This document shows positions 25,048 through 63,660 of a DNA stretch of 64,000 nucleotides, piece after piece. Source of the DNA: an uncultured bacterium (lineage in GTDB: Bacteria; Babelota; Babeliae; Babelales; Babelaceae). The notes below the pieces were generated by a model. That model did no database searches. It was not told where the DNA came from and saw only the letters and a program-made list of their open reading frames with translations. Within the stretch, counting starts at the first letter, position 1. Each line of letters opens with the position of its first letter. Location of the stretch: NCBI GenBank assembly GCA_963848965.1, contig CAWKFG010000001.1, positions 352,001-416,000 on the forward strand, written 5' to 3'. Position numbers and translations under genes: made by a program.

Positions 25048-25123
25048 GCGCCCGTAGCTCAAAGGATAGAGCGCCAGACTTCGAATCTGTAGGCTGTAGG
25101 TTCGAGTCCTACCGGGCGCGCCA
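25048..25123 (+). tRNA. tRNA-Arg(TCG); integration site
   Basis: Acceptor stem GCGCCCG/CGGGCGC, D arm TAGCTCA, anticodon loop CT-TCG-AA, T loop GGTTCGAGTCC, encoded CCA. Confidence 0.95.
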
Positions 25124-26569
25124 TGCTTGACGATCGTTACAATTTATGATTGCATCAAAGGGTTTTCTCACGTCGTAGAGCACTTTTTCATCACTTACCC
25201 GTAAGTTCAGAAGTACGAGAGTGATTAAGAGTCTCCTTTCTTCAACTTCAGAACTCATAAATAAGTCGTATGCTCGATTTGCTAGATCTAGTATATATTT
25301 TGCTGTTATAAAGTAGTTGTCTTGAGCTTCTTGAAATTGCTCAAGTCGGATACTAACATCGATGCTCTCATCCTTAATCATTTGGTAAAATCTGTCATAC
25401 TCGCTATCAGTAATTCTCCCTTTAAGTCTATCAAGGTAAAGATTATCCATCATAGTAGTAAGAGTTTTTTGTCTTTCGTTAAGTTTCTCGACCTCTTTAT
25501 TATGGAAATCCATCTTTTCTTGCTGAACAGCATTCAACGTATCGACAATAGTGGTTAAAATATCTTTAGGTACATGTAAATTTTTAAAAACGGTTGCAAC
25601 TTGCTCAGTAATTGCCTCTTCTCGGAGCCATTTAGCGCCATGTTTGCCCTTAGATTGTGTGCAATGGTAATAGATATAGCCTTTATGTTTTTCAGGAGTT
25701 ATTGCTAGTCCACAGTCTGCGCAGCGTAAAAGACCTCTATAGATATAAGGTAAGCCCGCAAACTTAAATGGTTTTTTATTAAAGCCTTCTTTAACTTGTT
25801 GTACTTGTTCAAAAAGGGAGGGGCTGATAATTATGGGATAACGATGAGGATATTCCTTATTATTCCATTTCATAACGCCACAATAGAAAGTATTTTTAAG
25901 AATGTGATCAAGAAAGCCTTTAGACCAATTAAGGCCATAGGTGTCTTTTATTTTCTGGCATAATAATTGCATAGAGTAAGCACGAGATGCATAAAGCTCA
26001 AAGATCTTTTGGACTATGCCAGCTTCATAATCATCTACAATTATGTCAGTCTTTTCATCATCTTTAGTAATGTTTTTGTAACCGTAGGGCGCCTTTGATG
26101 GCCATTCTCCTTTACGTAGCTTTTGTTCAATAGCTCTTTTAACGTTGTCGCTTATAGCATCTGAATAATACTTTGCTAACCCAAGACTGATACTAAATTG
26201 AAACTTTTCTACAGCAGAAATGCGGCTATTAATTACCTGCCCATCAGAGGCAAAGTGCAGTTCTATCTCATCACGTAGGGCTTTTTCATAAAGGATGGAG
26301 ATACGTTTATCAAAGACATTGCGAGAAAGTCGGTCAACTTTATCGCAGCAGATGGCAACTTTTTCTTGTTGGTTTAAGATAAAGTCGATAATGCGATCAA
26401 AATCGGATCTATCGTTAGAATAGGCGCTTTCATCAAAACTACAAACTTTTATAACTTGAAAGCCTTTGCTTTGGCAGTATCTTTCAAGGCGGGCAATTTG
26501 AGCAGGCAAAGAGTTACCAGCTTCCTTTTGTTCTTCAGTACTTACTCGAGCGATAAGAATAGCCTTCAT
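25109..26569 (-). CDS. Large serine recombinase (integrase); 3' end overlaps the tRNA
   Basis: ARVSTEEQ catalytic Ser, DRLSR, APYGY, recombinase domain, Zn ribbon CADCG...YYHC, coiled coil; last codons WRAR* are antisense to the tRNA 3' end. Confidence 0.93.
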   Translation of the reverse strand: MKAILIARVSTEEQKEAGNSLPAQIARLERYCQSKGFQVIKVCSFDESAYSNDRSDFDRIIDFILNQQEKVAICCDKVDRLSRNVFDKRISILYEKALRDEIELHFASDGQVINSRISAVEKFQFSISLGLAKYYSDAISDNVKRAIEQKLRKGEWPSKAPYGYKNITKDDEKTDIIVDDYEAGIVQKIFELYASRAYSMQLLCQKIKDTYGLNWSKGFLDHILKNTFYCGVMKWNNKEYPHRYPIIISPSLFEQVQQVKEGFNKKPFKFAGLPYIYRGLLRCADCGLAITPEKHKGYIYYHCTQSKGKHGAKWLREEAITEQVATVFKNLHVPKDILTTIVDTLNAVQQEKMDFHNKEVEKLNERQKTLTTMMDNLYLDRLKGRITDSEYDRFYQMIKDESIDVSIRLEQFQEAQDNYFITAKYILDLANRAYDLFMSSEVEERRLLITLVLLNLRVSDEKVLYDVRKPFDAIINCNDRQAWRAR

Positions 26570-26696: not shown

Positions 26697-26730
26697 TTGA
26701 CTTTGTGTCGCTTATATAAGACAATATATA
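26697..26730 (+). promoter_or_regulatory. Toxin-antitoxin promoter/operator
   Basis: TTGACT -35 followed by imperfect palindrome TGTCgCTTATATAAGACA upstream of the toxin. Confidence 0.5.
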
Positions 26731-26741
26731 GTATGAGCAGT

Positions 26742-27071
26742 ATGATACAAATTATTTTTTACACTACATCTACGGGAAAGAAGCCTTTTATTGAGTGGCA
26801 AGATGAGCTTGATGTAAAAGCTAAATCAGTTGTCATTACAAGACTTGCTAGAGTAAGATTAGGCAACTTTGGTGACTGTAAACAAATTAAAGAAGGAAAT
26901 GGCATTTGGGAGCTTCGTATTGATTACGGTCCAGGGTATAGAATTTACTTTGGTAAAAGAGGGACAACCGTTGTCGTCTTATTAATAGGTGGGGATAAAG
27001 GAAGCCAAAGTCGTGATATTGCAAAAGCAAAAAGGTATTGGCTCGAATATAAGGGATCCGAATATGAATAA
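26742..27071 (+). CDS. RelE/ParE-family addiction module toxin
   Basis: RLGNFGDCK, ELRIDYGPGYRIYF, GGDKGSQSRDI. Confidence 0.9.
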   Translation: MIQIIFYTTSTGKKPFIEWQDELDVKAKSVVITRLARVRLGNFGDCKQIKEGNGIWELRIDYGPGYRIYFGKRGTTVVVLLIGGDKGSQSRDIAKAKRYWLEYKGSEYE

Positions 27072-31001: not shown

Positions 31002-31658
31002 TTATTCAGAGATTCTATTGCTTGCTGAACCTCCCCTACGGCGTTTTTTTTGTATTATCTCTTGAATTTTAGCTAGGGAGGCACCATGGCGAAGTAAGAA
31101 GCGTATTGTTTCTATATAGGCTGCAAGCTCTTGTGTTGTATTCGCTTGAAGCTTTAATACTTGAGATGTTTTAGGTAATGATTTCATTGTTTCCTTTTTT
31201 GTTGGTTTTATGGAGAACTTTATTTCTTGTACTTTCTTTCCTTGATAGACATATTCAACATCTACTTTTAGTTCAGCATTTTGATTAACTTCTGTTATTG
31301 CCTTTTTTAAGACAAAGCGATCAAAATCCTTAAAGTATTGATACTCATGAGATAGTAGACCTAGGTAATCACGAAGTACCTCTACTGAAAGAGTAGGTGC
31401 TTGATGTTCTTCAAGGAAGCATAAACATAACTCATAAAGAGCGAGAGTATATTTACAGGCAAACGTACGTTGAAGCTCTAAGTCTAGCTTGATAGGATGC
31501 CCACAGTATTTAAAAAGATGCTTTACCTCTTGGGAGTATTTGTAATAGCAAGTACCATTATCAAAATATATTGACTCTAAGAGATTAAAGGGCTTTTTTA
31601 AAGGGTTACCAGCGCCTAGAAGGACCACTCCATGTGTAGATGTTATGTCTAAAAGCAA
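31002..31658 (-). pseudogene. Rep_3/RepB-type plasmid replication initiator, 5'-degraded
   Basis: YTLALYELC, LRDYLGL, YQYFKDFDRFVLKKAITEVN, GKKVQEIKF; no clear start. Confidence 0.7.
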
Positions 31659-32930: not shown

Positions 32931-33809
32931 TTGAACGTAAAGAAAGCGAAACTTGAGGGAGATTCTGCTATTAATAATCTTGCACGAGATTTACAGAACA
33001 CTTTTCCTGGTACAAGAGGATTTTCAAGTCGTAATCTCCGCTACATGGCTAATTTATATGCTACTTACTCTCAGAGTCAAAAATTGCAATCAATGATTGC
33101 AAAAATTAGTTGGACACATAATATAATTATTTTAGATCGTTGTTCTGATATGCTAGAGAGGGAGTTCTATATCAAAATGGCTGCTAAATATGGGTGGACC
33201 TCTCGGATGCTTATGAATTATATAGATAATCAGACTTATGAAAAAACATTACTTAGTGAAACCAATTTTGATAAAAGTCTTCCAGAAAATATCAAAAATA
33301 GGGTAAAACTGGCTCTAAAAGATGATTATACGTTCAGTTTTTTAGAACTTGGAGAAAAGTTTACAGAGTATCAGTTAGAAAAGGCTATATTAAGTAAAGT
33401 TGAACGATTTCTTAACGAGATGGTGGAATCTTTACATTTGTTAGTAGCCAATATCGGCTTGAAGTGGGGATTAAGAGTACTTTATAGATCTACTTCTCTA
33501 TCATCGTTTTTTAAGATGCCTTGTAGCTATAGAGCTGAAAATAGGTCCTTTTATACCTGAGTATATGGGCAAGATGCAATTTTATCTTTCGGTATTAGAT
33601 GATACCGTAAGGATTGACGGAGAAAATCCTTCCATTGGCATTATCCTCTGTAAGGATAAAAATAAGACTATAATAGAATAGCCTTAAAAGATGCAAGCAA
33701 GCCAATTGGGGTAGCAACTTATCAAATGGTTAAGAAGTTACCTCAACAATTAAAAGATCAACTTCCCTCTGTTGAGCAAATTGAGCAACTCCTTGATGAG
33801 TTAGATTAA
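32931..33809 (+). pseudogene. YhcG/DUF1016 PD-(D/E)XK nuclease, frameshifted
   Basis: GFSSRNLRYM, ISWTHN, REFYI, KDDYTFSFL; other frames continue GKMQFYL...ENPSIGIILC. Confidence 0.85.
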
Positions 33810-34058
33810 TATTACCAGTTACTGTGAATGAAATTGCTAAACTTGGAGCTTTAGCAGCATATTGCAATAGTATTCCTTATAATCTCTTCTATCTAAATAT
33901 TGTTGTTGTTATAGCGGTAAGCATAATATTTTTCTAAAAAATAGTTTTAAGCAAACCAAGTATTGATTGAATGCTCTCAAGGCTAAAGTTGAATTCTATA
34001 ATTTCGTTCCTGAATGCGTCAACGATTGTGTTAAAAGTCAACAAGTTTAAAAATTATT

Positions 34059-35003
34059 TTAAGTAGTTTGCCATTGTTCTCCTTTTCGAACCATAACATT
34101 TAAAATACCAATAACCTTTCGCATAACAGCAATGAGAGCAACTTTAGCTTTTTTACCAACAGTGCGTAGCCGTTTATAAAAGCATTTAAGTGCAGGATTA
34201 AATCTGATAACTGCTAATGTAGCCATATAAAGGATATCACGGGTAGCTTGTCTACCACCGCTAATTGATGCAGTGCCTTTAGATCCACCACTTTGCTTAA
34301 TAAAAGGTGCTACACCTAGAATAGCGGCTATTTGCTTATTACCGACTTTGCCAAGCTCAGGCATTTCTGCAAGCAAAGAGCAGGCAGTGACTTTGCCGAT
34401 ACCAGGCATAGACTCAATAATATGGCATTTTTTATTAAGAGATTCATTGTCTTGGATCAGCTGTTCAATTTCTTGTTCAACTTCCTGTAACTGTCTTTCC
34501 ATAAAGGAGATATGAGCTTCAAGAAAATTTTTACAGTAAACTTGTTGAGGATGCTGCAATTTATTGGTTTCTTGAACAATGTTTCGGACAATGTTAGTCC
34601 TGAATTTGACGAGAGCACAGAGCTTTAGCTCGTCTTGAGAACGAATAATCTCATGATATTTAGGCCGTTTTTGAGAAGCAAAGAGAGCAATCATTTGAGC
34701 ATCAATTTTATCAGTTTTAGCCTTAATGCCTTCAGAGATGATGAAGGCTCTAATGCGTCTAGGCTGAACTTGCCAAGCATTATAATTATTAATGCTAAGT
34801 TCTTGCTTGAGAAGGAAATCGTAACCACCAGAAGACTCAAAAACGATCTGTACGACAGTATAAGCAGAAAGTACTTGAATGAGTTTATTGATTCCAGCTT
34901 GTGAGTTAGCAACTCTAAAGTCTTTAGCCACAGGATGTAAGTGAATATCTAAAAATTTTTTAGAGATATCGATGCCGACAAAAATATGTGATATAGTATT
35001 CAT
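34059..35003 (-). CDS. IS110 transposase (bridge recombinase)
   Basis: GIDISK, FESSGGY, KTDKIDA (DEDD RuvC), PGIG, QSG. Confidence 0.95.
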   Translation of the reverse strand: MNTISHIFVGIDISKKFLDIHLHPVAKDFRVANSQAGINKLIQVLSAYTVVQIVFESSGGYDFLLKQELSINNYNAWQVQPRRIRAFIISEGIKAKTDKIDAQMIALFASQKRPKYHEIIRSQDELKLCALVKFRTNIVRNIVQETNKLQHPQQVYCKNFLEAHISFMERQLQEVEQEIEQLIQDNESLNKKCHIIESMPGIGKVTACSLLAEMPELGKVGNKQIAAILGVAPFIKQSGGSKGTASISGGRQATRDILYMATLAVIRFNPALKCFYKRLRTVGKKAKVALIAVMRKVIGILNVMVRKGEQWQTT

Positions 35004-35165
35004 ATAGTGCCTCGGTTTTGTATACGGGATCCTTGTCCCACTCGATTGTTCGAGCTGTACTATATATGCTAGCAGGTCCTAAGTTGACACTCGGTTTTAA
35101 AAACCAGGCAGGGGAACAGGCTCCTGCTAGCTTTCCTAAACTTAACGTCTCAAATTTAGGAACAT
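35003..35165 (-). ncRNA. IS110 bridge RNA, copy 1
   Basis: 5' hairpin, target loop (CCCCTGC / GTGTCAA) and donor loop (ACAATCG / TATACAAA) matching the insertion site and IS ends; RNA ends approximate. Confidence 0.85.
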
Positions 35166-35264
35166 AATTTCAATATACAAAGTAGGGGGCACCAACTTAA
35201 GTAAAGCTTATTTCCCATTTATATAGATTTTTAACTAAACATGTAATAGGTTAAGGAGCACGTA

Positions 35265-35591
35265 TTAGTTTTTCTTAAAAGTAGAGTGATTTGGTTGGTT
35301 TAATTGAGGTAAGCGTGCAAGAGGTTTATGTGATTGTTTTGCAATCCATAGATCATAGCGATATTGGAGATTAAGCCAGAATTCAGATGATGTACCAAAG
35401 ACGTCAGCAAAATCAAGCGCAATCGCTTCAGTGATTCTTCTTTTTTTGTTAACTATTTCACTTATTTTTGATTGAGTCCAAGTTCCTCCTAAATGCTTTG
35501 CTAATTGTTCTTGTGAAAGGTTAAGAGGCTTAAGAAATTCTTCTTGAAGAATTTCTCCTGGATGAGTAGGTATTCTTTTTGAGGGAATCAT
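35265..35591 (-). CDS. higA: HigA antitoxin
   Basis: PTHPGEILQEEFLKPL...FWLNLQ. Confidence 0.92.
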   Translation of the reverse strand: MIPSKRIPTHPGEILQEEFLKPLNLSQEQLAKHLGGTWTQSKISEIVNKKRRITEAIALDFADVFGTSSEFWLNLQYRYDLWIAKQSHKPLARLPQLNQPNHSTFKKN

Positions 35592-35606
35592 CTTTATTTC
35601 CTTAAT

Positions 35607-35900
35607 TTAATGATAATCTATAATTTCAACATTTTCTGCTCCATCTGCGCTCCAGGAAAATATGATTCGATATTGATCATTAATTCGAATACTATAGTAT
35701 CCTTGTAATGTACCTTTAAGAGCCTCTAAACGGTTTGCTGGAGGCACTTTAAGATCATTAAGAGTATATGCAGCATCAATCATATCGAGTTTTCTACATG
35801 CAATAGAATGTAGTAAAGGATCAAGCTTTTTTCTTGCTTGTTTAGAATTGATACCATTAAAAATATCTTTTGTACCTTCATCAGCAAATGATCGAATCAT
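35607..35900 (-). CDS. higB: HigB toxin
   Basis: MIRSF...PPANRLEALKG...YSIRINDQYRI. Confidence 0.92.
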   Translation of the reverse strand: MIRSFADEGTKDIFNGINSKQARKKLDPLLHSIACRKLDMIDAAYTLNDLKVPPANRLEALKGTLQGYYSIRINDQYRIIFSWSADGAENVEIIDYH

Positions 35901-35939
35901 TACTCTGCCTCTGTAATTTTATATCATTATATAATATAT

Positions 35940-36015
35940 CAATATATAAATCAAGTTTAGGATCAACAATAAGTTTTTTGGTTCTGAATGTGTCAACGAT
36001 TGTGTTAAAAGTCAA
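35940..36015 (-). repeat. att-like tail remnant joined to an orphan IS110 right end
   Basis: 21-bp IS end TTGACTTTTAACACAATCGTT (36015-35995) followed by GACACATTCAGAACC (D-T-F-R-T). Confidence 0.75.
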
Positions 36016-36028
36016 AGAATTTTACTTT

Positions 36029-36466
36029 TTATAAAAGAGTAAGTTCTGAATGTGTAATGCCTTGAGAAATATATCCAATAGCTTGCCTGTGACCAGACAT
36101 AAGCGAGGAAGGTAGTTGATCAGAGAAAAACCAATCAAGCCTTGGATGCTTGGTAATCTCTTTATTGATAGGATCTCCTTGCCAAGAAGTGATAACAAAA
36201 AAGAAGGCTATACAATCTTGGGGCAAGCGTCTTATATGCATAACATGAGCAAAGGTAATATGTTGAGGGTCAACTACAATATTGATCTCTTCTTCTAACT
36301 CTCGCCTTATCGCATTCTGAAGCGATTCATGTTCTTGAGGCTTACCTCCAGGTAGACAGTAAGTATTATCCATAAAGCCTGTACTTTTTCGTTCAAGTAA
36401 CAGAATTTGATTACTTTTACTATCAGGTTTCTTCTTTATAACGAGAGCATCAACATAGACAATCAT
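36029..36466 (-). CDS. NUDIX hydrolase
   Basis: Nudix box PGGKPQEHESLQNAIRRELEEEINI. Confidence 0.9.
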   Translation of the reverse strand: MIVYVDALVIKKKPDSKSNQILLLERKSTGFMDNTYCLPGGKPQEHESLQNAIRRELEEEINIVVDPQHITFAHVMHIRRLPQDCIAFFFVITSWQGDPINKEITKHPRLDWFFSDQLPSSLMSGHRQAIGYISQGITHSELTLL

Positions 36467-36590
36467 ATTTGATAAGCCTCATTTTTCTCTTAACCCACTG
36501 CAAGAAGCCTACTTCAATATTACTATAGAAAGGGAGTTTATAAAAGGAATGGTTATGGTTAAAAAACAAAAACCATCAAAAAACGCTCCT

Positions 36591-36770
36591 ATTGGGACTT
36601 TGGCCAAAGATCTTCCAAATGAGTTTCCGGGTATAGAGGGATTGTCAAGTCATAATATTTTAGAATAAGAGCTTTTTATAGGGCTTATTAAAGAGTGCCA
36701 CAGCCTGTGGCACAATTAGAAGAGCTCCCAGTTTTTAGGACTCCGTGAGGCCATAATGCATTATTATGGA
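36591..36770 (+). pseudogene. DUF1016 N-terminal remnant
   Basis: LAKDLPNEFPGIEGLS...PQPVAQLEELPVF, with stops. Confidence 0.6.
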
Positions 36771-36971
36771 TAATATAGCGGGAACTAGAGCTTCTACAGC
36801 TGCTGACCCCTCATTCATTTAATCAGTACTTGTTGGCTTTCTGGTGTTTTCTCTCGTAAATACTGAGGATTTTTTTAACACCAAGATCTAGTAGATATGC
36901 CAATTTACAATTTTGAAACTGTGAAGTATTATCAAATAAAACGCTCTTTGTTGCTTTGGGAAAGGGATCAT

Positions 36972-37541
36972 ATGATTTTAACTGGTTTTAAAATTGCCAT
37001 TTTAATAACTAGTGGATTTCAGCAAATTGAGATGACAAGCCCACGAAAAGTTTTAAAAGATGCTGGTGCTATTGTTCACATTGTGTCTCCTGAAAAAGAT
37101 ACAGTTCAAGGTTGGGATTGTGATGTTCCAAAAGCATTAGAGAAATTTCCTGTAGATGTTAATTTGAATGACGCATCACCTGATAATTACGATGCTTTAT
37201 TGGTTCCAGGAGGTTATGGAAGTCCAGAAGAGCTACGGCTTAATAAGAAAGCTATAGCGTTTGTTAAAGCATTTGCACATAAGCCAATTGCAGCTATTTG
37301 TCATGGTCCTAGCTTACTTATTAATGCGCATCTGACAAAGAATAAAACGCTTACTTCCTATCCAGCAATTGAGCAAGATTTAATAAATGCTGGCGCTCAT
37401 TGGATTAATAAAGCTGTGGTCATCGATGATAATTTAATAACAAGCCGTTCACCAGAAGATATAGAAGTGTTTAATAAAGCTATTCTTGACGTATTTAGCA
37501 AAGTCAAAACGAGAAAAGTTAATAAGAGGCCTAAAGTGTAA
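36972..37541 (+). CDS. PfpI/DJ-1 family protein
   Basis: YDALLVPGG, AAICHGP, LITSRSPED. Confidence 0.92.
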   Translation: MILTGFKIAILITSGFQQIEMTSPRKVLKDAGAIVHIVSPEKDTVQGWDCDVPKALEKFPVDVNLNDASPDNYDALLVPGGYGSPEELRLNKKAIAFVKAFAHKPIAAICHGPSLLINAHLTKNKTLTSYPAIEQDLINAGAHWINKAVVIDDNLITSRSPEDIEVFNKAILDVFSKVKTRKVNKRPKV

Positions 37542-37557
37542 AGTGGATAAAGACTCT

Positions 37558-37630
37558 ATGAAACGAGAGAACTTTGCTACTAACACAAAGTAGGAGCCAA
37601 TTGTAGGTTATTCTAGGACTGTAAAATTGA
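37558..37630 (+). pseudogene. RidA-family N-terminal remnant (second remnant at 56072-56116)
   Basis: MKRENFATNTK*EPIVGYSRTVK; near-identical start at 56072 (MKRENFAINTKWEPI). Confidence 0.6.
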
Positions 37631-37652
37631 TAGCGTTTCTCTAGTACAGATT

Positions 37653-38030
37653 TTAAGGAACAAAGAGTTTGGGCTCTCCTGTCTCTTCTAAATCGTCTCC
37701 TATATCTATATCGGCTAGACATATATGTTGTGTATCCTGACTTGCTGGAATTTTAGATTTTATAGCTAAAAGTTGTTGCTTTCCCAGAGCGATTTCTTTT
37801 GCATAATAAGATGCCACTTCCTCTAGTAAAGATTGAGGACGAGATAATGACTTGTACTTTACATCCGGTAAATCAAAATCCAAAGGCTTTTTAGGAAATG
37901 ATAGATTAATAGAAGCAATAATAGTGCTTTGGTCGGTTATTACTTTTGAAGATTCTAGGGCCTGTTCCATGCTATAGAGTTTTGCGTTTACTATTATAGC
38001 TAAGACTATAAAACCAATATTTTTATACAT
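37653..38030 (-). CDS. Hypothetical secreted protein (possibly truncated)
   Basis: Signal peptide LYSME. Confidence 0.55.
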   Translation of the reverse strand: MYKNIGFIVLAIIVNAKLYSMEQALESSKVITDQSTIIASINLSFPKKPLDFDLPDVKYKSLSRPQSLLEEVASYYAKEIALGKQQLLAIKSKIPASQDTQHICLADIDIGDDLEETGEPKLFVP

Positions 38031-38263
38031 ATTCTAGCACCTTTAAGAAGTATTAGATTAACTTTATAAATTATATACTAATAGAAACTCGTAATAGGTC
38101 AAGCTCAAAGTTTTTATAGGAGATGCCCGATTAATACGGCTTTATAGAAAAATGAAGCTTCAAACAATGGTTTATTGACAAAGTGTATTTTGTGGGTTAA
38201 TTTAGTGGAGGTACTTATGAATTCGTAAGATTTATAACATTAGTTAGACTGGGGATCCTTGCT

Positions 38264-40438
38264 ATGAATTATTTATGTATGATATATGCTTTAACTGCCC
38301 TCATAAGCTTTTCCTTAAATGGGATGCAGCAAGAAGTAAAAACACATCCAAATGAAACTTATAAGAAAAATTTGGAGTTACAGCAACAATTAATAAGAAG
38401 CTCTTTAAAGAGAGCCATTGATTCTTTTGCTCATAGCCAAGTAACTTCAGTACCTCAAGTATCTCTCTACACAACTCAACCAACACAATGGTTATTAGCT
38501 CCGATGCAGAAGGCTATAGTTGATGCTCAAATGGATATGCTAAAAAATATAGCTCCGGATAAAAACGAATTAACTGTTGTCTGTGCAGGAAATAGTAACT
38601 CTTGTACAAGTGCTATTTATGAAAAACTTGCAGTTAAAAAGCGTGTTATCAGCACAACAACAGAGAAAGCTTCTCCAGAATCAGTAGATATTATACTAGC
38701 ACCGTATACACTGTATAGTGAAATGGAATCTCTATTTAAAGCTTCCGAAGATCTTCTGTCTTCAGAAGATCCTTTACCCTTAGAAAGTCATCCGCTATTT
38801 AATTATTTTAGTAAGTTAAGCAAAGATGGGGTCTTTATTGTCACATTGCATAGCGGACCTAACGTGCAGGATTTTACTAACTTACTACTTAATAAGCATG
38901 AGCTTGATCTTACGCAGGTGCATCAAGCTGTACAGCCAAAGTTAAAAATATTTAATTCAATAGAGACATTTCTTCGTTGTTTAGACATATTTAAAAAATA
39001 TTATACACAAAAGACTGGTAAAGTTATTACCTGTGACTTATCATTCTCTTTGCCTCATATACCTCTCGATGTATTTTGTAACGAATATGTAAAACAATAT
39101 CCAGAACTTGGACATATGAATAATGAGCAGCTTGAGAAGTTTATACGTCTTCTTTCAGTTTTTGCTGTTGGCAATGATATCGTAGACCTTGCTATTACTT
39201 TAAAAATGTCGATAAAAGAATCAAGTGATCAGTCACAGCGTTCTTTCAAGCCTATACCAGGTATAATGAGTCTGCTTAAGAGTGAACCTATTGTGTCTCA
39301 AGGTAAGTCTAATGAGATTTCGCTAGGGCAACAGAATCTTGATAAACAGATTCAGAATTTAGAGGGTAGTGAACTATCTATGGTCCATATTAAGGGTGCA
39401 GACGGGGCAGCACAATTAGAAGCCATAAAGTCCGTTATTGGTCGTCCAAATCTTAACGTTGTTGATTTAGGAGGGGGACGTGGTGAAACTAATGCTCTTA
39501 TGAAAGCGCTTAAGGACTCTGGCTCAAACGTTCATCTATTAAATATTGAGCCGCATAAACCCTTTAAACCATTATATCTTGATGCACAAAATGCTGTTGG
39601 TATAACAGATGTAGAGGTATGGGAGCAAACTGCTCAACAACTATCAGCGCCTGAGGTAGTAAAACACTTTAAAGATAATAAGTAGATATACTCTATGCTT
39701 CGCATTCATTTTACTTTCTGTTAGGCGATTTATACAAAGCATCATTAGAGTATGCTCATGGATCTTCTACAACGCCATTAGCACAATCCATTATGGAAAT
39801 ATTTTGACATGCTTCATGAAAAGGGAATATTAGTCATTACTATGCAAAGTGGTGCTGGTGCCCGTCTATTTAGAAATGCGTTACTTGGCAATCACGGACT
39901 TAACCAACCAGCGCCAAATGTTGCTGACGAAACAGTTCCACTTTTAAGTAGTTTTGGTAATATGGCAACCTTATTACGTTCCTTTGAACTTTTTGCAGAT
40001 CATTACCAAAAAGAAACTGGTAAAGTAATTACTATTAAAATGCACTACTCTGTTGCTAATGTGCCACTTGGTAGCTATACCATAGGACAAAATCCAGAAA
40101 CCAAAGGTTATATTCTTCATGATGAGAGTAAGGAGCAAAATATGCTTGCATTAAGGATGCTTGATTTCTACGGTAACTGGCGTGAGTTACAAACACTTGC
40201 AAATGTAACTCCGGAAAAGGTTGCTGCTATGGATGTTGAAATGCAGAGGAAATTAGGGCTGGAAAACGCTACGCAGGAAGCAATTATAGCTAAACGAGAA
40301 AATGCTCGTAAAATGCAAGAAACATTCCTTCATATTTTGAGAGTATTTGCTCTAGCAAGAAAGAATATGCAGCACCCTAATATTACTCTAGAATTTAGTA
40401 TTGAACCACAACAAAAGAATACTGTTTTATCTAAGTAA
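38264..40438 (+). pseudogene. Secreted tandem SAM-methyltransferase-like protein, frameshifted
   Basis: VVDLGGGRG, LNIEP, then VDILYASHSFY in another frame after 39680; internal duplication (KTGKVIT / ETGKVIT). Confidence 0.7.
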
Positions 40439-40550
40439 AATGGAAGTTCCTTAAAAGAATGAGTTAAACTGCCGCTCAAGATGAACCTAGAGAGTTTGAG
40501 AGAGCTGAATTTCTAGGTTCAAAAAAAAGTTATGCGGGTGTAAGCAGTAA

Positions 40551-40668
40551 TTAGTTTTGATAGAAAAGTAAAGCTTGTTGTATATCTTTAAGGTCAACTT
40601 CAAACAAGATACTTTTGTTCCTAAAATAGTGCTACTTGATAGCACCATAAGTCAAGCAGGGGGCGCCA
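40551..40668 (-). repeat. att-like integrase tail with 22-nt hairpin insertion
   Basis: WRPLLDL-[TGGTGCTATCAAGTAGCACTAT]-FRNKSILFEVDLKDIQQALLFYQN*; shares GCGCCA with the tRNA 3' end. Confidence 0.75.
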
Positions 40669-40697
40669 CCCTTCGCTAAAGCTTCGACTGGCAGGCC
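40669..40697. repeat. Small REP-like palindromic repeat (related copies ~50841-50871, 52095-52132, 61401-61438)
   Basis: CCTTCGCTAAAGCTTCG..GGCAGG family. Confidence 0.6.
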
Positions 40698-40874
40698 AGT
40701 TCTTTAAAGCATGATATAAATATTTGGTCATCAGAAACAAAATACTGCTCTATCTCATTACCTAAGACTTTCTTATAATTACTTATTAAATAATAATTTA
40801 TAATATATTAAATTATAGTTAATTATATAAATATGATATAAATACTTAAAAATATAATTAAAGGAATTATTCTT

Positions 40875-41637
40875 ATGAGACTATATATAGCTAGTATATT
40901 TTTAATATTAAGTGGTTCTTGCTTTGGAATGGCGTTAGAGTCTACGAAAGAGGAAAGTGGAAATGTAAATGCTCTTTTACGAGTTTTCCCAAGCGAGCTT
41001 CTTGAAGGACTAGAACCGTATAGAAGATATGCTCAATTTGCCGCTGTTCCTATCGATATTATACAATCAGCAAGTACACTTGAAGAGGCAATTGAAAGCT
41101 TAAAAAAACTTGAAAATATCTCGACCGGAGTACGCAAAATATTTTAGTGACCCAAGAATTATTGATATACTTATTAATACTTTAACTATTAAATTTAAAA
41201 AACGACAAAAAGACTTAATTGATAAACTTTATGAAAAAGAATTTAATCAAGAAGGGTTAGACAGTTGGCTGAATAAAATATTACCCATACAGCAGGAGCT
41301 GCTTGAGGCAGCTTCAGCAGGGAATTTAGAAAAGGTAAAGCAACTTCTTGCAAAAGATAAATATAATATTAATGCTTTAGATTTGGCTAACTATACTCCC
41401 CTTTTCAATGCCGTTGAGCAGGAGCATATTCCTATAGTTCAATATTTACTTGAACACGGAGCTGATATTCATGCTCAAGCTGTAACAGGTAATACGCCTT
41501 TACATCGTGCAATTATTAGAGATAATCCTCAACTAGTAAGATTATTACTTGAGTATGGTGCTGATCCTTGGATTGAGGATATGTTTGGTGCAACAGCCTT
41601 GGATAAAGCTCTACAAAAAAGAATCCAGAAATTTTGA
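40875..41637 (+). pseudogene. Frameshifted secreted ankyrin protein
   Basis: Two overlapping ORFs: signal peptide plus FPSEL, then ankyrin repeats. Confidence 0.75.
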
Positions 41638-41842
41638 AGCTTTTTAAAGAAGTTACCGTTGAATCTAAAGTGCACAAAAGGTCGAGGTACTACTCTTTTT
41701 ATTAATCTATATCCATTGTATTAAGAAGATAAAAATGGGATGTATCTAAAAAATTAAAATCAACTAGGAAGTTAAATACTTCCTAGTTCTTTCACGTTAA
41801 ATGTGGTTAATGCAATGTAACCTTTAATTCTTTCCTAATTAT

Positions 41843-42087
41843 TGGTCACACGGCTAAGAGTTATTGAGGTTATAGAATAATTGTTTGGATCAAGTAATCG
41901 CTTAAGAGCGCTTCTACTAGTACCTAGATGCTTAGCCATCTCTGTTTGGCTTATACGATTTACCATCTCTTGTTGTAGTTCATAGGTTATTATTTGCTTT
42001 ATAGCTGCAGCTTCAGCTTTTTCTAGGATACCTTCTTTTTTAAGAAAGAGTATCGAAATCGGATTCTATATGCTTATTATTTTCCAT
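41843..42087 (-). pseudogene. XRE/HTH antitoxin-like remnant
   Basis: MENNKHIESDFD, frameshift, then GILEKAEAAAIKQ...SQTEMAKHLGTSRSALKRLLDP. Confidence 0.65.
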
Positions 42088-42117
42088 TGCTCTCTCTTAT
42101 CTAAATGTATAGGGAAG

Positions 42118-42435
42118 TTAGCGGTTATTCTTGGTGGTCAAGGGTATAACTTCTCCATCTTTTTGAGCTTGTAAGGTATAACCTAAGCCATTAAATATTT
42201 TAATAAGACTAGCAGCGCTTATTCTTCTATTTCCAGAACGAATTCCTTGAATGATAGTAGGAGATACTCCAGCTTCTTCAGCTAACCTTCTTACTGTAAT
42301 TCCATCTCTATGCATAGCCGCTAAGATGAGCTCTGATATTAAGAGATTTTCGTAATCTCGTTCAAATTCCTTTAACTCGCGTGGGCTTAATTTTTCAATA
42401 AGCTCATCGTAGGTAGATTTCATTTTTTTAGTCAT
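42118..42435 (-). CDS. XRE-family HTH protein (antitoxin-like)
   Basis: ITVRRLAEEAGVSPTIIQGIRSG. Confidence 0.8.
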   Translation of the reverse strand: MTKKMKSTYDELIEKLSPRELKEFERDYENLLISELILAAMHRDGITVRRLAEEAGVSPTIIQGIRSGNRRISAASLIKIFNGLGYTLQAQKDGEVIPLTTKNNR

Positions 42436-42459
42436 TGTAATATCCTTTATTATATCTTT

Positions 42460-42831
42460 TTACATAATCATCGGAATATTAAAAATAGGCAGGTCATATA
42501 ATTGTCGCACAGCCTGTGCGAATTTTTCATAAGCTAGATAAAACGCCTGCATTCTAAACATATTGGCTCTAGAGAACCCTGCAACCCCAGGGAATTCAGC
42601 TTGTAAATCCTTGCCTAGACTTTCTATAACACTTTCTCCCCAACTGTTTTTTGCCTGTTTTTCAGTTAATATCTTTCCAATATACCAATAGAGCTTAAGT
42701 AACTCTTTGTTTGCAGAAAGAATTGCTTTGATTTGAGCTTCTCTTACTTGCTTTTTAAGATCAGCTAATACTTCAGCATATTCTCTTAACTCTATGCCCT
42801 TTGTGTCTTTTAGATTGACTTTTTTTATCAT
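42460..42831 (-). pseudogene. DUF1016 N-terminal fragment
   Basis: ANKELLKLYWYIG, WGESVIESLGKDL, GFSRANM. Confidence 0.85.
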
Positions 42832-42834
42832 GGG

Positions 42835-43076
42835 CTAGCCTTTATTCGTTTGTGTCGCGGCATGGATAAGTTTTGCTAGAGTTTTAATTGTAGGATTCGA
42901 TTTATCAGACATAGCAAGGTAGATAGTTTGCCTATGTAGTCCAGTTTGTTTTGATAATAATGTTTTGTTTTTAGACTTTATGTAGTTACTTAATATATCT
43001 ATTACTTCTCTTGGATTGTTATTTTCTAGCGCATTCAAGATTGCAAGCCGTAATCTGATTTTTCTTTTCTTTCCAT
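42835..43076 (-). pseudogene. Addiction module antidote remnant
   Basis: TGLHRQTIYLAMSDKSNPTIKT HTH; 5' frameshift. Confidence 0.65.
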
Positions 43077-43214
43077 AAGCTTCTCCGATTCATTAAAAGG
43101 TACATAAATAGTGTATATTAAAATATACAAAGGTGCAAGCACTTTATTTAGAGAAGACCTCAATGGCTTATTTGTAAGACCCGTACTACTCAGATCATGA
43201 GCTAAAACTAGAGT

Positions 43215-43439
43215 TTAGTTAGTTTTAGTGATTTAAACTTTGTTATATGTTTGCGTAGTGTGTTAAAAGGGCTTTGGTTTAAGGGTAACTTTATTTTATT
43301 TAGATCAGCTATGAGGCGATACAAGCCCCCTTTATTAGAATGTGCAAACATAGTTCTCAGTTCCCATATGGTTACTACCTCAAGCGCTTATTTTAAACCA
43401 TATTAAGATGTGCTTTGGATTAAGATCAAGGTTGTTTAA
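43215..43439 (-). pseudogene. C-terminal remnant of the Rep gene
   Basis: Nucleotide similarity to 27655-27890 (e.g. TGCTTTGGATTAAGATCAAGGTTGTTTAA). Confidence 0.8.
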
Positions 43440-43543
43440 GGAAGTTTTCTAGCCGGTGAAAAAGCGTAAGCTTTTGTAAATCTCAGATTTCTTTGTTAAA
43501 GTTTAGTTGAAAGCTGTTCGACAAGTTTACAAAGGAGTAAGCT

Positions 43544-44066
43544 ATGTATAGAAGTTTTTGTTCTACTCTAATGAGTATTGCATTATTTTTCTCTCTAGTA
43601 AATGCGCATGATGTGGAGCAAAGTACCTGCCATCATGACGAAGGAAACATCTTTATTATTCTTAATAAACCGTTGCACCGCTATCTTCAAGCACACTACA
43701 GCCATAAGTATGAAACAGCTAAAGAATTGTTAAAGCATATCCATACACTAGAGCTTATTATTCAAGAAAATACCTGCTTTTATTCTTTGTTTATTAAAGA
43801 TCTCTCTTCAAAATCTAAGATTATTATAAAAGGCAGAGAGCGATTGTTAGAATCTATTATCGGCCAAGGCATGATTGATAATACTATTATTAAGCTCTTC
43901 TTTTGTATATAAAGAGCGGTCATTGCAGTGTCACTTTAATAAACAGAAAAGAGTCGGTATTATTAAGCTTGATGAAAGGCAAGCTCAGAAGTTCTGTTAT
44001 CGTCTGTTAGCTCTTGCAGAAAGAACGGATAATCAACTTTATAAAAAGCTTTATCCTAACTTATAA
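43544..44066 (+). CDS. Hypothetical secreted protein, probably split by a frameshift
   Basis: RBS AAGGAG, signal peptide, two overlapping ORFs. Confidence 0.5.
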
Positions 44067-44304
44067 GAGTATACATGTTTGTAAGCTAGTTTGCAGTTAA
44101 GTAGAGTCTCTGGATAATAAACCTGAGTTTAGAGTTGCTGTAGTGACTATATGTATTTAAAGTTATATAATGTTAGTATGTTGTGCACTAGAAAGTGCTC
44201 TTTCTGGCTTTTAGATTATATCTTTACGCATTGATGTGAGTGCGTTATAGTGAAAAGTTAAGCTCTGTAAATCAGGTAAATCCCAAATGATACGGAAGTT
44301 TTCG

Positions 44305-44535
44305 TTATAATTCATTATTATTTTCAGAAGAATTTTTTGCTGAATATAGATCTTTATATTTGTGTTTAGAAAGAAGCTCTATCATTTCTGTATAATCTTC
44401 ATTTAAAGCAATATCAAGAGGATTGAATTGCCATTTGTTGGTTCGAATAGTACCATCTGCACCATGCTCAAGTAGGAGCTGTGCTATTTTTATAGTGTTT
44501 TTTTCTGTGGCTAAATGCAAAGGAGTAACACCATA
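44305..44535 (-). pseudogene. Ankyrin C-terminal fragment
   Basis: GVTPLHLA...LLLEHGAD...PLDIA without a start. Confidence 0.7.
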
Positions 44536-44708
44536 ACTTCTTTAGGAATCTCCAGCAAAAAAAAGAAGCTACTCTTTAATGTTTCTCTAAAAATTATTAA
44601 GTAAATAAAATATTGATTGAATGCTATCAAGGCTAAAATTTAGCTCTATAATTTTGTTCCTGAATGCGTCAACGATTGTGTTAAAAGTCAACAAGTTTAA
44701 AAATTATT

Positions 44709-45653
44709 TTAAGTAGTTTGCCATTGTTCTCCTTTTCGAACCATAACATTTAAAATACCAATAACCTTTCGCATAACAGCAATGAGAGCAACTTTAGCTT
44801 TTTTACCAACAGTGCGTAGCCGTTTATAAAAGCATTTAAGTGCAGGATTAAATCTGATAACTGCTAATGTAGCCATATAAAGGATATCACGGGTAGCTTG
44901 TCTACCACCGCTAATTGATGCAGTGCCTTTAGATCCACCACTTTGCTTAATAAAAGGTGCTACACCTAGAATAGCGGCTATTTGCTTATTACCGACTTTG
45001 CCAAGCTCAGGCATTTCTGCAAGCAAAGAGCAGGCAGTGACTTTGCCGATACCAGGCATAGACTCAATAATATGGCATTTTTTATTAAGAGATTCATTGT
45101 CTTGGATCAGCTGTTCAATTTCTTGTTCAACTTCCTGTAACTGTCTTTCCATAAAGGAGATATGAGCTTCAAGAAAATTTTTACAGTAAACTTGTTGAGG
45201 ATGCTGCAATTTATTGGTTTCTTGAACAATGTTTCGGACAATGTTAGTCCTGAATTTGACGAGAGCACAGAGCTTTAGCTCGTCTTGAGAACGAATAATC
45301 TCATGATATTTAGGCCGTTTTTGAGAAGCAAAGAGAGCAATCATTTGAGCATCAATTTTATCAGTTTTAGCCTTAATGCCTTCAGAGATGATGAAGGCTC
45401 TAATGCGTCTAGGCTGAACTTGCCAAGCATTATAATTATTAATGCTAAGTTCTTGCTTGAGAAGGAAATCGTAACCACCAGAAGACTCAAAAACGATCTG
45501 TACGACAGTATAAGCAGAAAGTACTTGAATGAGTTTATTGATTCCAGCTTGTGAGTTAGCAACTCTAAAGTCTTTAGCCACAGGATGTAAGTGAATATCT
45601 AAAAATTTTTTAGAGATATCGATGCCGACAAAAATATGTGATATAGTATTCAT
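44709..45653 (-). CDS. IS110 transposase
   Basis: Same 314-aa protein as copy 1. Confidence 0.95.
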   Translation of the reverse strand: MNTISHIFVGIDISKKFLDIHLHPVAKDFRVANSQAGINKLIQVLSAYTVVQIVFESSGGYDFLLKQELSINNYNAWQVQPRRIRAFIISEGIKAKTDKIDAQMIALFASQKRPKYHEIIRSQDELKLCALVKFRTNIVRNIVQETNKLQHPQQVYCKNFLEAHISFMERQLQEVEQEIEQLIQDNESLNKKCHIIESMPGIGKVTACSLLAEMPELGKVGNKQIAAILGVAPFIKQSGGSKGTASISGGRQATRDILYMATLAVIRFNPALKCFYKRLRTVGKKAKVALIAVMRKVIGILNVMVRKGEQWQTT

Positions 45654-45815
45654 ATAGTGCCTCGGTTTTGTATACGGGATCCTTGTCCCACTCGATTGTT
45701 CGAGCTGTACTATATATGCTAGCAGGTCCTAAGTTGACACTCGGTTTTAAAAACCAGGCAGGGGAACAGGCTCCTGCTAGCTTTCCTAAACTTAACGTCT
45801 CAAATTTAGGAACAT
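45653..45815 (-). ncRNA. IS110 bridge RNA, copy 2
   Basis: Same sequence as copy 1. Confidence 0.85.
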
Positions 45816-45940
45816 AATTTCAATATACAAAGTAGGGGGTGCCACGTTCTTAAAGTGCTTGTTTTGCCTATTCGTAAGTTTTTTTTGTTAAATCGTAAAA
45901 CATAACGCTGCCGTAAAAGAAGTCCAACTACTCTTAGTTT

Positions 45941-49500: not shown

Positions 49501-50429
49501 GAGCCTATCCGTAAATTCATAATTTGTTAAAAATAATGATAGCTACGGCAAAATAAACCATAGCCATATAGTTTAAAGCGTATTTTTCATAACGAACAAA
49601 CAAGCGCCTAAACCGATTGAGCCATGAATGCGTAGGTTCAATGAACCAGCGTTGATAACCTTCTGGTACACCATAAACTTTATTTTTAGCTTTTCTTTTA
49701 TTTTTCATTATTTTAGGTACATAGCTGTAATGCAGCAAGTAGGCTCTTATTTGCGCTGAATCATAAGCTGCATCTAAACTTATAATTTTGCTATAAGGCA
49801 TGGATATATGCTTAGGAATGGATAATAAGGTATCCAAAAATAGCTGAGAATCGTGCTGATTAGCGCTACCTAACGCACAACCGATAACTATACCGTTTTT
49901 ATCAGTTAATATGCTTCGTTTTGTTCCTAATTTTCTCCTATCTACTGGGCTCTTGCCTGTTTTCTCTGAACCCAAGGGCGCTTTAATATAAACACAATCA
50001 GCAGCTTGAGTTTCTAGACTAAGTCCGTGAATTTTATCATATTGGTCAAGTTCAGCATACCATAAATATTTAAAGAACTCGACAGACCTTAATTTTTGAA
50101 ACAGTTTATGGACAGCAGAGTACGATCCAAAGCATCTAGGCAATGCATTCCATTGTATACCTGTCCTTAACAGATAATAGATACCATTTATTGCTCTTTT
50201 CATATCCATTGAGGGTCTTCCCCGCTTTGATTTTTCGCTTATTTTTGGTATTATTTTTTCTATATCTTTCCATAAATTTGGAGTTATAAGAAACTTCTTG
50301 TTTATGCATACTTCATAACAATTTTTTGTATGACACATGTGTAAATCTCCTTCTTGATCGTTGATCGCGATTCTTTAGAAGGAGATTTTATTATATTTTC
50401 AACCTTTTTTCCATTTTAGAGATAGGCTC
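49501..50429 (-). mobile_element. IS5-family insertion sequence
   Basis: Terminal IRs GAGCCTATC / GATAGGCTC with TTA target duplication (49498-49500, 50430-50432). Confidence 0.9.
49517..50338 (-). CDS. IS5-family transposase
   Basis: GIYYLLRTGIQWNALP, GTKR, DAAYD, RWFIEPTHSWLNRFRRL. Confidence 0.92.
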   Translation of the reverse strand: MCHTKNCYEVCINKKFLITPNLWKDIEKIIPKISEKSKRGRPSMDMKRAINGIYYLLRTGIQWNALPRCFGSYSAVHKLFQKLRSVEFFKYLWYAELDQYDKIHGLSLETQAADCVYIKAPLGSEKTGKSPVDRRKLGTKRSILTDKNGIVIGCALGSANQHDSQLFLDTLLSIPKHISMPYSKIISLDAAYDSAQIRAYLLHYSYVPKIMKNKRKAKNKVYGVPEGYQRWFIEPTHSWLNRFRRLFVRYEKYALNYMAMVYFAVAIIIFNKL

Positions 50430-55330: not shown

Positions 55331-55797
55331 ATGCAGAGCCAATGGACCTAGAGGTTTTGTCTGAAATTGAATTGTACAGCACTTTAAAAAATAAGTTTTT
55401 GGTTGACAACAGGAGTTTTTTCGTACTATAGTCGAGCTCAAGTATCAACCTATAAAAAAGGGATCTCTTATGAACGATATACGTATAGCTACTAAAGCTT
55501 CTTCAGCTTTAGCTAAAAAACGAGAAAGAGTCAAAGAGCTTGTAAAAGCGTCAATGATTACCCAAGGCTATTACTATAATGGAATGGAAGGGCCGCCTTT
55601 GAGAGTAGGATATGGCGCGAGGAAGAACGTTAAAGCTTAATCAAACTTTATGTATGCTTAAGCTACTTTAGATGCTGTACACAAAATTAATGGAAGATTT
55701 AAGAGCTCATTATGCTAATCTTGATGCAATGCAAGAAAGGCATAAGAATGAAAATGAAGATAATCCTAGAGCAGCAAAGTAGCTAAGCATACTCCTA

Positions 55798-55862
55798 CTA
55801 TTCCATATCAAGCTTTTTGTTCAGAAAATAGTGCTACTTCATAGCACCATGCGTCCAAGAAG
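55798..55862 (-). repeat. Degenerate att-like tail with the same 22-nt hairpin insertion
   Basis: FLDA-[TGGTGCTATGAAGTAGCACTAT]-FLNKKLDME*. Confidence 0.6.
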
Positions 55863-56175
55863 ATTTAAATTTATTCTAAGCAGATAGCCATTGTTCATCT
55901 TTGCGAATCATAACATTTAAAACACTAGGATGTGCTAATACTAAGCTAATCAATAATATTAACGCCAATTCGAGCTAAGGACTAGATAAAAAAGGCCCAC
56001 TACAGTATTCTTTACTTTAGATGAAGATTGATGTGTCTTAATAGGCTAGTTTTCGCGCTTACTGGGGTTTTATGAAACGAGAGAACTTTGCTATTAATAC
56101 AAAATGGGAACCAATTTTTTTGCTAATTTAACGTAATTATTTTGGGTTGGGTCAATATAACCAAAGAGGGAACGG

Positions 56176-61013: not shown

Positions 61014-61103
61014 ACTTTATGCAAATCTAATACATAGTGTTAGACATTCTAATACATAATGTTAAATTTACTAGGCTTCAATTTTTTGGCAAGAAGTTCT
61101 TAC

Positions 61104-61460: not shown

Positions 61461-61504
61461 TTCAGTTAACCAGTAATAGAGTCTTCTCTTAAGCTGTGAA
61501 GATA

Positions 61505-63080: not shown

Positions 63081-63211
63081 TGAATTTGTTAAGTAGGTCT
63101 TTGTACGAATATAATTTATTGGGCGCAATAGAGAACTAGATTTTTTTGTTAGTTTGTTTTGCAATAAAATCTATATTCAAAAGATGCTTATTGTAAGCTG
63201 AATATGGTGTA

Positions 63212-63613: not shown

Positions 63614-63660
63614 GTAAAAAAGGCAGCTTTAACAGCTGCCCCTATACAGAACTATTTACT

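Follow-up and report, generated by a model that had tools for sequence, protein, structure and literature searches.

A predicted TT-core bridge recombinase of the IS110 group in a Dependentiae genome, inserted in repeated coding tails that resemble the end of a serine integrase

We analyzed a 64,000-nucleotide (nt) stretch of the genome of an uncultured Babelaceae bacterium of the Dependentiae (assembly GCA_963848965.1, contig CAWKFG010000001.1, forward-strand positions 352,001 to 416,000; hereafter the window, with positions counted from its first base). On its minus strand, at 34021..35181, is an insertion sequence (IS) that is very probably an active or very recently active element of the IS110 group working in the manner of IS621. 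It appears to make a bridge RNA of the IS621 type from its left end, and its recombination would be guided by that RNA. The parts that seem worth following are its TT core, its decoded target, and the arrays of short protein-coding repeats, here called tails, in which it sits and which resemble the end of a serine integrase; otherwise, the element would behave like IS621.

The boundaries of the element can be read from its copies. Copy 1 has the TT core at both ends (35181-35180 and 34022-34021), as seen in its junction sequences, and its TT-bounded body (35179-34023) is 1157 nt long. Copy 2 (44671..45831, minus strand) is identical to it and sits in a paralogous tail, while a third identical copy is located on another contig of the genome, C4, beside another tRNA-Arg gene. 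Across all three, the 1156-nt stretch GTATA...AATCG (35178-34023 in copy 1) is 100% identical. The TT core is present at both junctions of copies 1 and 2, with no terminal inverted repeats and no longer target duplication. The left noncoding end measures 176 nt and the right end, after the stop codon, 36 nt, which is the layout of the IS110 group and not that of IS1111. Two remnants were also found on the minus strand: a solo right end, or scar (35990..36015), consisting of the last 19 nt (TTGAC...ACAATCG) followed by TT-GACAC, and a 70-nt 3' fragment of a related IS (55856..55925; 81% alike) that abuts the TT-GGACGC of another tail. Beyond the element's own genome, no near-identical copy was found among genome contigs, metagenome contigs, and 261 genomes of the class, except for a 93%-identical variant (77-78 differences in 1160 nt) on contigs of public runs X1-X3 from two studies. 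In that search of public runs, the best matches contained 13% of the sampled words, as contigs; none of the matching runs was recorded as RNA, and no reads across a circle junction were found. Run X4 contained two 151-nt pieces identical to the window and may be the sample from which the genome came.

The element encodes a recombinase of 314 amino acids (34059..35003, minus strand) with a DEDD_Tnp_IS110 domain (PF01548; expectation value [E] 3.1e-19, residues 9-150) and a Transposase_20 domain (PF02371; E 2.5e-19, residues 193-277). It is homologous to the solved recombinases of ISCro4 (E 3e-34) and IS621 (E 4e-31), the chains matched being 8wt6 and 9t56. In an alignment with 33 homologues, D12, E56, D98, and S238 were invariant and D101 was at least 90% conserved; we take these to be the counterparts of the catalytic residues of IS621. 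The closest protein relative found overall was 61% identical. By source, the best relatives reached 44% identity over a partial match and 43% over the full length on genome contigs, 49% on metagenome contigs, and 55% over the full length among the 261 genomes of the class, where a split copy in genome G019 reached 57-64%. A degenerate relative, L117 (G061:C23), is 52% identical and has one stop codon; near position 2599 of its locus, a right end ACAATCG-CT is directly followed by TGTATC, which looks like a joined or tandem end.

The predicted bridge RNA occupies 35001..35165 on the minus strand; both of its ends are estimates, the 5' end from the junction promoter described below, and its 3' part overlaps the GAGG ribosome-binding site and the ATG of the recombinase gene. 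It begins with a 5' hairpin of 13 base pairs (35133..35162), in which TTCCTAAA (35162-35155) faces TTTAGGAA (35140-35133). Next comes a putative target-binding loop (35068..35131) with a closing stem of GCTAGCAGG (35131-35123) and CCTGCTAGC (35076-35068). There, the left target guide CCCCUGC (35114-35108), followed by CU, is separated by an inner hairpin from the right target guide GUGUC-AA (35090-35084), which is 7 nt long including the core. The putative donor-binding loop (35001..35066) is closed by ATATAGT (35065-35059) and ACTATAT (35008-35002). Its left guide, ACAAUCG (35049-35043), equals the last 7 nt of the element and is followed by AG, and its right guide, UAUACA-AA (TATACAAA; 35024-35017), matches the element's first bases. 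Specifically, UAUACAAA is complementary to TT-TGTATA, the match for copy 3 being TT-GTATA, 7 nt. Full complementarity to the TT core is seen in the 3' guides only.

All of the stems and guides listed in an initial annotation of this DNA were found at its coordinates on the minus strand, and a minimum-free-energy fold reproduced the hairpin, the closing stems, and the first loop. Starting at 35165, the fold reached -53.9 kcal/mol (z = -4.5, with 0 of 200 shuffles as stable) and recovered the 5' hairpin, the first loop, with its GCUAGCAGG/CCUGCUAGC closing stem and its inner hairpin, and a second domain, whose closing stem is AUAUAUAGU/ACUAUAUAU. Inside the second loop, GCUCGA pairs with UCGAGU and not as the CUCG/CGAG helix of the family. 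We also shuffled the 176-nt left end 20000 times, preserving dinucleotides, to see how often such guides would arise by chance. The two target matches (no more than one mismatch each, in order, and 10-45 nt apart) were seen together in 129 shuffles, and both donor matches, taken as exact, in a single one.

Relatives of the element provided family-wide evidence for this architecture. They comprised 21 loci on genome contigs, 80 on metagenome contigs, and 15 and then 23 loci from related genomes. When 21 left ends were aligned (alignment A3) and four helices were written onto them by hand, 92% of cells were paired and compensatory change was observed at 17 of 21 pairs, a result that none of 500 shuffles reached. 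Sliding the partners by 1-3 columns lowered the pairing to 31-42%. RNAalifold, run on a first alignment of 12 sequences, returned the donor-loop helices only; it missed the first stem because that stem was misaligned there.

The guides can be followed across the family in the same way. A usable protein match was available in 100 of 116 loci, and 69 loci passed our filters (a start no less than 140 nt into the locus, an open reading frame of 800 nt or more, and a minimum of 40 nt downstream, with the two other copies in the element's own genome excluded). A 7-mer common to the right end and the donor loop was found in 64 of these 69, and 63 of those loci were unique. In 48 of the 63, the target-loop region of the same locus contained an exact reverse complement of the core and the adjoining 5 nt of right flank, compared with 36 of 3858 (0.9%) noncognate pairings. 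On the left side, flank plus core matched at 8 or more of 9 positions in 14 of 41 loci versus 13 of 1640 noncognate pairings, a count weakened by a crude left-end finder that was wrong for at least three loci (L023, L026, and L044). Furthermore, five other Dependentiae genomes contain multicopy relatives with the same guide logic, each with a repeated target of its own. An example is genome G242, where the site CCAACC-CT-TTTTAG corresponds to CCAACC-CU as left guide and CUAAAA-AG as right guide.

These patterns bear on whether a guide RNA exists at all. One could suppose that the matches in the left end are subterminal repeats at the DNA level to which the transposase binds, with the leader regulating translation only, and it is true that the stem closing the donor loop extends over the ribosome-binding site (GAGG) and the start codon. 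We consider this very unlikely. The left guides are sense and the right guides antisense, they lie in internal loops between covarying helices, and they change together with the flanks of each relative. The target flanks, moreover, cannot be the transposon's own binding repeats. The arrangement of sense and antisense guides is the one demonstrated experimentally for IS621 (PMC11208160).

A bridge RNA also implies a way of being transcribed, and the ends of the element suggest one. The right end contains a -35 box, TTGACT (34036..34041, minus strand), that is predicted to function only when joined in the circular form to the left end, where a -10 box, TATATT, is located (35172..35177, minus strand). 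Joining the ends in silico gave TTGACT-17 nt-TATATT, a sigma-70-type promoter with 10 of 12 matches; in the form that is shorter by one T, the spacer measures 16 nt. Upstream of the integrated copies, no promoter reaching 9 of 12 was found. A promoter rebuilt across the circle junction is also described for IS621 (PMC11208160). Taken together, the two IS110 domains, the homology to ISCro4 and IS621, the four covarying helices, the covariation of guides with flanks, and this promoter support the IS621-type bridge RNA that had initially been annotated.

Our study further suggests that the core has been naturally reprogrammed, in agreement with the earlier contrast between TT here and CT in IS621-type elements. 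A CT core was found at the right junction in 61 of 64 parsed loci, and in the left ends that were read by eye, both 3' guides end in AG. Left ends of relatives begin with TGTAT, and their right ends finish with ACAGTTG or ACAATCG. In the present element, the core is TT and both 3' guides carry AA instead (GUGUC-AA and UAUACA-AA); the CU and AG after the left guides do not follow the core. According to Durrant et al. (PMC11208160), IS621 accepts TT cores, and does so better with a longer right target guide.

What the RNA is predicted to recognize can be compared with where the element is found. Copies 1 and 2 have the junctions CCCCTAC-TT-TGTATA... and ...ACAATCG-TT-GACGC and share the site CCCCTAC-TT-GACGC, with one G:T-type wobble relative to the guides on each side, just as first described. 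Copy 3 is in CCCCTGC-TT-TACAT (...TGTCCCCTGC-TT / TT-TACATGTTTCGGAAC), and its left junction, CCCCTGC-TT-GTATA, has one T fewer than the donor ACAATCG-TT-TGTATA; the claim that the donor guides spell the rejoined ends thus holds for copies 1 and 2 but not, in that form, for copy 3. The 93%-identical variant has the site ...TGTCCCCTGC-TT / TT-TACATGTTTCGGAAC, with loose ends ...CTGTCCCCTGC on the left and TACATGTTTCGGAACCGAGAGC... on the right, and apparently occupies another site of the same kind in another organism. The TT-GACAC of the scar at 35994 and the CCCCTGC-TT-GAC of the tail at 40668, both pointed out initially, are present as well. The right target matches the guide at 5 of 5 positions in the former alone; the latter (CCCCTGCTTGAC; 40651..40662, minus strand) is unoccupied and lies within a tail after TGGCGC and a palindromic hairpin. 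The genome contains 30 sites that read CCCCT(A/G)C-TT, of which three are the copies' own left junctions and 27 are unoccupied (25 outside the tail family, plus site C and its duplicate on contig C3). Mapping the other copies had been set beforehand as a refutation test, and it placed none in unrelated sequence: all three copies, the scar, the related-IS fragment, and the 93% variant occupy the same point of one repeat family.

A shared insertion point could in principle reflect duplication of an IS-bearing segment, as opposed to targeted insertion. Contig C3 lends this idea something, being a 9.4-kb duplicate, 98-99% identical, of the stretch from copy 1 to copy 2 that ends at IS boundaries. 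We nevertheless find it extremely unlikely. The left flanks of copies 1 and 2 are unrelated beyond the last 8 nt and their right flanks are 83.5% alike over 97 nt, yet the IS copies are identical. Because the left flanks share only those 8 nt, copies 1 and 2 are independent insertions into paralogous sites. In addition, copy 3 is on another contig beside the other tRNA-Arg gene, and the metagenome variant has different flanks again. As to contig C3 itself (9474 base pairs), which represents a second version of 35182-44650, it reflects either strain heterogeneity or a tandem duplication, flanked by IS copies, that the assembler collapsed.

The repeat family that receives these insertions is made up of coding tails. 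Peptide and regular-expression searches found 13 sites that encode ..S-(K/E)-E-D-W-(C/R)-P-L-L-(D/Y)-x-F-R-N-x-x-L-x-F-E-x-D-L-K-D-I-Q.. up to a stop. The programmed target of the IS corresponds to the P-L-L-D/Y codons just after TGG, which open a tail of about 30 codons. Variation among tails is of the synonymous type (TTT/TTC, AGG/CGG, CTT/TTA, and GAT/GAC), with diversities of 0.53, 0.31, and 0.54 at the three codon positions, and a long open reading frame was attached to none of the 13 sites. Within the window, a minus-strand array of tails lies downstream of tRNA-Arg(TCG); its members, at 34021, 35994, 40668, 44671, and 55860, span approximately 33934-34020, 35900-35996, 40540-40662, 44587-44670, and 55740-55862 and are conserved at the protein level. 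A second array (C4:435238-453619) adjoins tRNA-Arg(TCT). In the tail at site A (33934..34020, minus strand), D-A-F-R-N-E-I-I-E-F-N-F-S-L-E-S-I-Q... continues to a stop and is cut off from its own P-L-L codons by IS copy 1. Two of the tails carry, at the same place (40626-40647 and 55828-55849), a 22-nt hairpin-forming insert, TGGTGCTAT-C/G-AAGTAGCACTAT, that sits just after the position of the right IS target and breaks the tail reading frame.

Another repeated sequence is found nearby. Immediately after the CCA of tRNA-Glu and tRNA-Lys comes the palindrome GGCCTGCCAACCGAAGCTTTAGCGAAGGTTGGCG, which is found again at island ends spaced about 5 kb from one another (~40663-40715 in the window; C4:523949, C1:347077, C2:5219, C2:10420, and C4:518920). 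It looks like a tRNA terminator carried along in duplications of attachment (att) sites. Many IS110 elements target repetitive extragenic palindromic (REP) sequences, and the element could likewise be aimed at this REP-like or terminator-like palindrome after tRNA genes, with the tail being incidental. The hairpin is indeed just upstream of the 40668 site as well as beside tRNA-Glu and tRNA-Lys, and relatives in other Dependentiae target repeated, palindrome-like sequences. We think this improbable, since the 14-nt target lies wholly on the tail side of TGGCG, with no part of it within the hairpin. Upstream of copies 1 and 2 there is no more than a degenerate arm of the hairpin, and at copy 3 and in the C4 array, TGGTGT is present without any hairpin. 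Conversely, hairpins without a PLL-type tail (beside tRNA-Glu, at C2:10420, and at C4:518920) carry no IS. The location of all copies, the scar, the fragment, and the variant in one tail family is in line with the initial proposal that the IS specializes in the P-L-L-D codons of an att-like tail, the att role being what the following comparisons suggest.

The tails resemble the C-terminus of one homologue of an integrase that is encoded in the window. A large serine recombinase of 486 amino acids (25109..26569, minus strand; PF00239 Resolvase, PF07508 Recombinase, and PF13408 zinc ribbon) overlaps tRNA-Arg(TCG) (25048..25123, plus strand), whose 3' end, GCGCCA, is the proposed attachment core. 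The end of the integrase, ...N-D-R-Q-A-W-R-A-R-stop, reads through the reverse complement of the tRNA 3' end. The TGGCGC or TGGTGT that precedes P-L-L in the tails is likewise the reverse complement of the 3' end of the neighboring tRNA (GCGCCA or ACACCA), and TGG CGC is in the same frame in the integrase end and in the tail at 40668. Names carried by homologues of this integrase (Candidatus Babeliales, Dependentiae, TM6) place the host in the Dependentiae. Among the matches listed, 111 of 114 integrase homologues read ...PF(D/N)...W and then diverge; the other three lack that W or are not listed. Beyond the W, most end immediately or continue through a tRNA in reverse complement (..LGRKDSNLR..). 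One homologue, P0180, continues W-S-P-L-V-D-A-F-R-N-G-K-V-E-F-T-I-S-L-S-H-I-Q-S-T-F..., and three uninterrupted tails align to its residues 480-515 with 58, 53, and 38% identity (E 1e-8, 1e-7, and 4e-3, calculated on a small set).

The shared in-frame TGGCGC, the divergence of homologues after the W, and the tail of P0180 together suggest that the integrase gene spans attP, with crossover at TGG/CCA; neither an empty nor a circular form of the island was seen. Displaced tails appear to gather beside the two tRNA-Arg genes, where they would mark attR/attP arms. A different crossover was considered for 40668, read as an attR with exchange at the GC inside the palindrome GTCAA-GC-TTGAC. That join is out of frame and was rejected, whereas crossover at TGGCGC is in frame and fits the homologues. 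Furthermore, the overlap of the integrase gene with tRNA-Arg(TCG), the divergence of its homologues after the W, and the presence of tail arrays at both tRNA-Arg genes suggest that islands accrete in tandem.

These elements can be combined into a possible cycle. Excision would join the ends of the IS, and the joint would create the TTGACT-17-TATATT promoter, which in the circular form would transcribe a bridge RNA of about 165 nt from the left end. The donor loop would hold the joined ends, ACAATCG-TT-(T)GTATA, and the target loop a CCCCTGC-TT-GACAC-like site, that is, the P-L-L-D/Y codons beside the att core; the DEDD/Tnp recombinase would then exchange strands at the TT core. Integration of an island, for its part, would replace the integrase tail, about 30 codons long, with a few codons derived from the tRNA, and the displaced tail would remain at the island's far end. 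In the Dependentiae genome, the IS would insert into such displaced tails of serine-integrase islands that integrate at tRNA-Arg genes. An insertion separates the crossover from the tail-side half-site by 1.16 kb and, speculatively, should disable the att site.

On this basis, we tentatively propose that the IS is a parasite of a parasite. It would home to the first codons of the integrase tail, split attR (or the attP of the free element) from its half-site, and so lock islands in place, while islands with an attP-spanning integrase would have built cassette-like tail arrays at both tRNA-Arg genes in Dependentiae. We regard this full scenario as plausible but, on balance, doubtful.

A number of observations weigh against the main interpretation, that of an IS621-like element whose bridge RNA directs it to the tails. 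With respect to the RNA, neither the CU after the left target guide nor the AG after the left donor guide pairs with the TT core. Rfam 15 yielded no relevant family, either in the whole window at gathering score or in 33900-35300 at E up to 10, and whether Rfam has a bridge RNA model was not established. With respect to the junctions, copy 3 and the 93% variant are one T short on the left compared with copies 1 and 2. The left and right junctions are CTAC-TTT-GTATA and CG-TT-GAC in copies 1 and 2, as against CTGC-TT-GTATA and CG-TTT-ACATG in copy 3 and the variant, and no single combination of donor form and register accounts for all of them. The right target of copy 3 fits the guide at just 3 of 5 positions plus a G:T wobble, and the site at 40662, with its perfect left match, carries no IS. 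The left guide could alternatively be UCCCCUG plus a 1-nt spacer, by homology to most relatives (guide 7, core 2, one spacer base, stem). Finally, one integrase in the genome stands against about 14 tails, and the specific PLVDAFRN tail occurs in 1 of 114 integrase homologues among the matches listed.

Some further details concern the same points. With UCCCCUG as the guide, copy 3 needs no indel, but copies 1 and 2 do not fit; L023, the closest relative, agrees with the CCCCUGC register. In the empty paralogues of the C4 array, CCCCTGC and TACATG are separated by two bases, which favors CCCCUGC followed by the core, with a donor of 1157 or 1156 nt; either donor form could be accommodated by the four consecutive A's of the right donor guide. 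The integrase proved to be a single gene when the genome was searched by tblastn, a search for which the tails are too short to be detected.

Comparison with known systems helps to define what may be particular to this element. It shares with IS621 of E. coli and with ISCro4 the same two recombinase domains and clear sequence homology. The likeness to IS621 (PMC11208160) also includes an RNA in a long left end, with a 5' hairpin, a target loop, and a donor loop, as well as left guides that are sense and right guides that are antisense including the core. It differs from both in its TT rather than CT core, in a right target guide of 7 nt including the core, and in left guides that do not pair with the core. 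Its natural target would also differ, being the att-adjacent coding tail of another mobile element and not REP. Restriction to one repeated intergenic sequence is reported for ISPpu9 and ISPpu10, which are multicopy IS110 elements of Pseudomonas putida; their targets are REP-type repeats, whereas the target here is a protein-coding remnant apparently tied to a serine integrase.

Within the IS1111 group, the attC elements and IS4321/IS5075 target integron attC sites and Tn21 inverted repeats. PMC11208160 lists Post and Hall 2009 and Partridge and Hall 2003 among its references. The analogy drawn initially between the present element and IS1111 elements that target attC stands as a likeness of lifestyle only, in that both would specialize in the recombination sites or ends of other mobile elements. 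The element is not a member of the IS1111 group: its right end is 36 nt and its putative RNA is in the left end, whereas in IS1111 elements it is the right end that is long and carries the guide RNA, and there are subterminal inverted repeats of 7-17 base pairs, which are absent here. On the side of the islands, tandem islands of the staphylococcal cassette chromosome (SCC) type have large serine recombinases (Ccr) that integrate at the 3' end of rlmH. The Dependentiae islands would resemble them in their large serine recombinase, in the use of the 3' end of a conserved gene, and in arrays of repeated att remnants, and would differ in being anchored at tRNA-Arg, with a remnant that resembles the C-terminal coding tail of the integrase itself. 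A limited literature search returned no paper on IS110 elements aimed at serine-integrase att sites, and none on serine recombinases with tRNA or on such islands in Dependentiae.

The islands contain other genes. A HigB-like toxin (97 amino acids) and a helix-turn-helix antitoxin (108 amino acids) at 35265-35900 fill the short cassette delimited by the tail at 35181 and the scar at 35994, and a small Gp49-like protein is encoded at 26697-27071. Elsewhere in the island region (31002-31658, 32931-33560, 42460-42831, and 49517-50338), we found a fragment of a Rep3-type plasmid initiator, two fragments of DUF1016/YhcG nucleases, and an IS4/IS5-type transposase; these remnants indicate a mosaic of mobile DNA. 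Toward the ends of the window, an open reading frame of 865 amino acids (2255-4852) contains diverged 192-nt tandem repeats (families D1 and D4), and two nested pairs of inverted repeats (59 nt at 98% and 107 nt at 91% complementarity) at 61097-63620 surround about 2 kb that includes an open reading frame of 343 amino acids with no Pfam match.

Our findings describe a predicted natural bridge recombinase with a TT core whose donor and target can be read from five insertions (of the IS or its near-identical variant) and one empty look-alike, and it is ready for a plasmid assay. The coordinated change from AG to AA in both 3' guides would provide a clean natural example of core reprogramming. 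More generally, the element may be a further case of an RNA-guided IS that specializes in the attachment region of another mobile element, here in an uncultured, protist-associated phylum. An integrase gene that spans attP, with displaced tails that mark past integrations, would bear on how islands build up at tRNA genes. If this is true, the tail arrays would represent an accretion system of a kind not described for Dependentiae.

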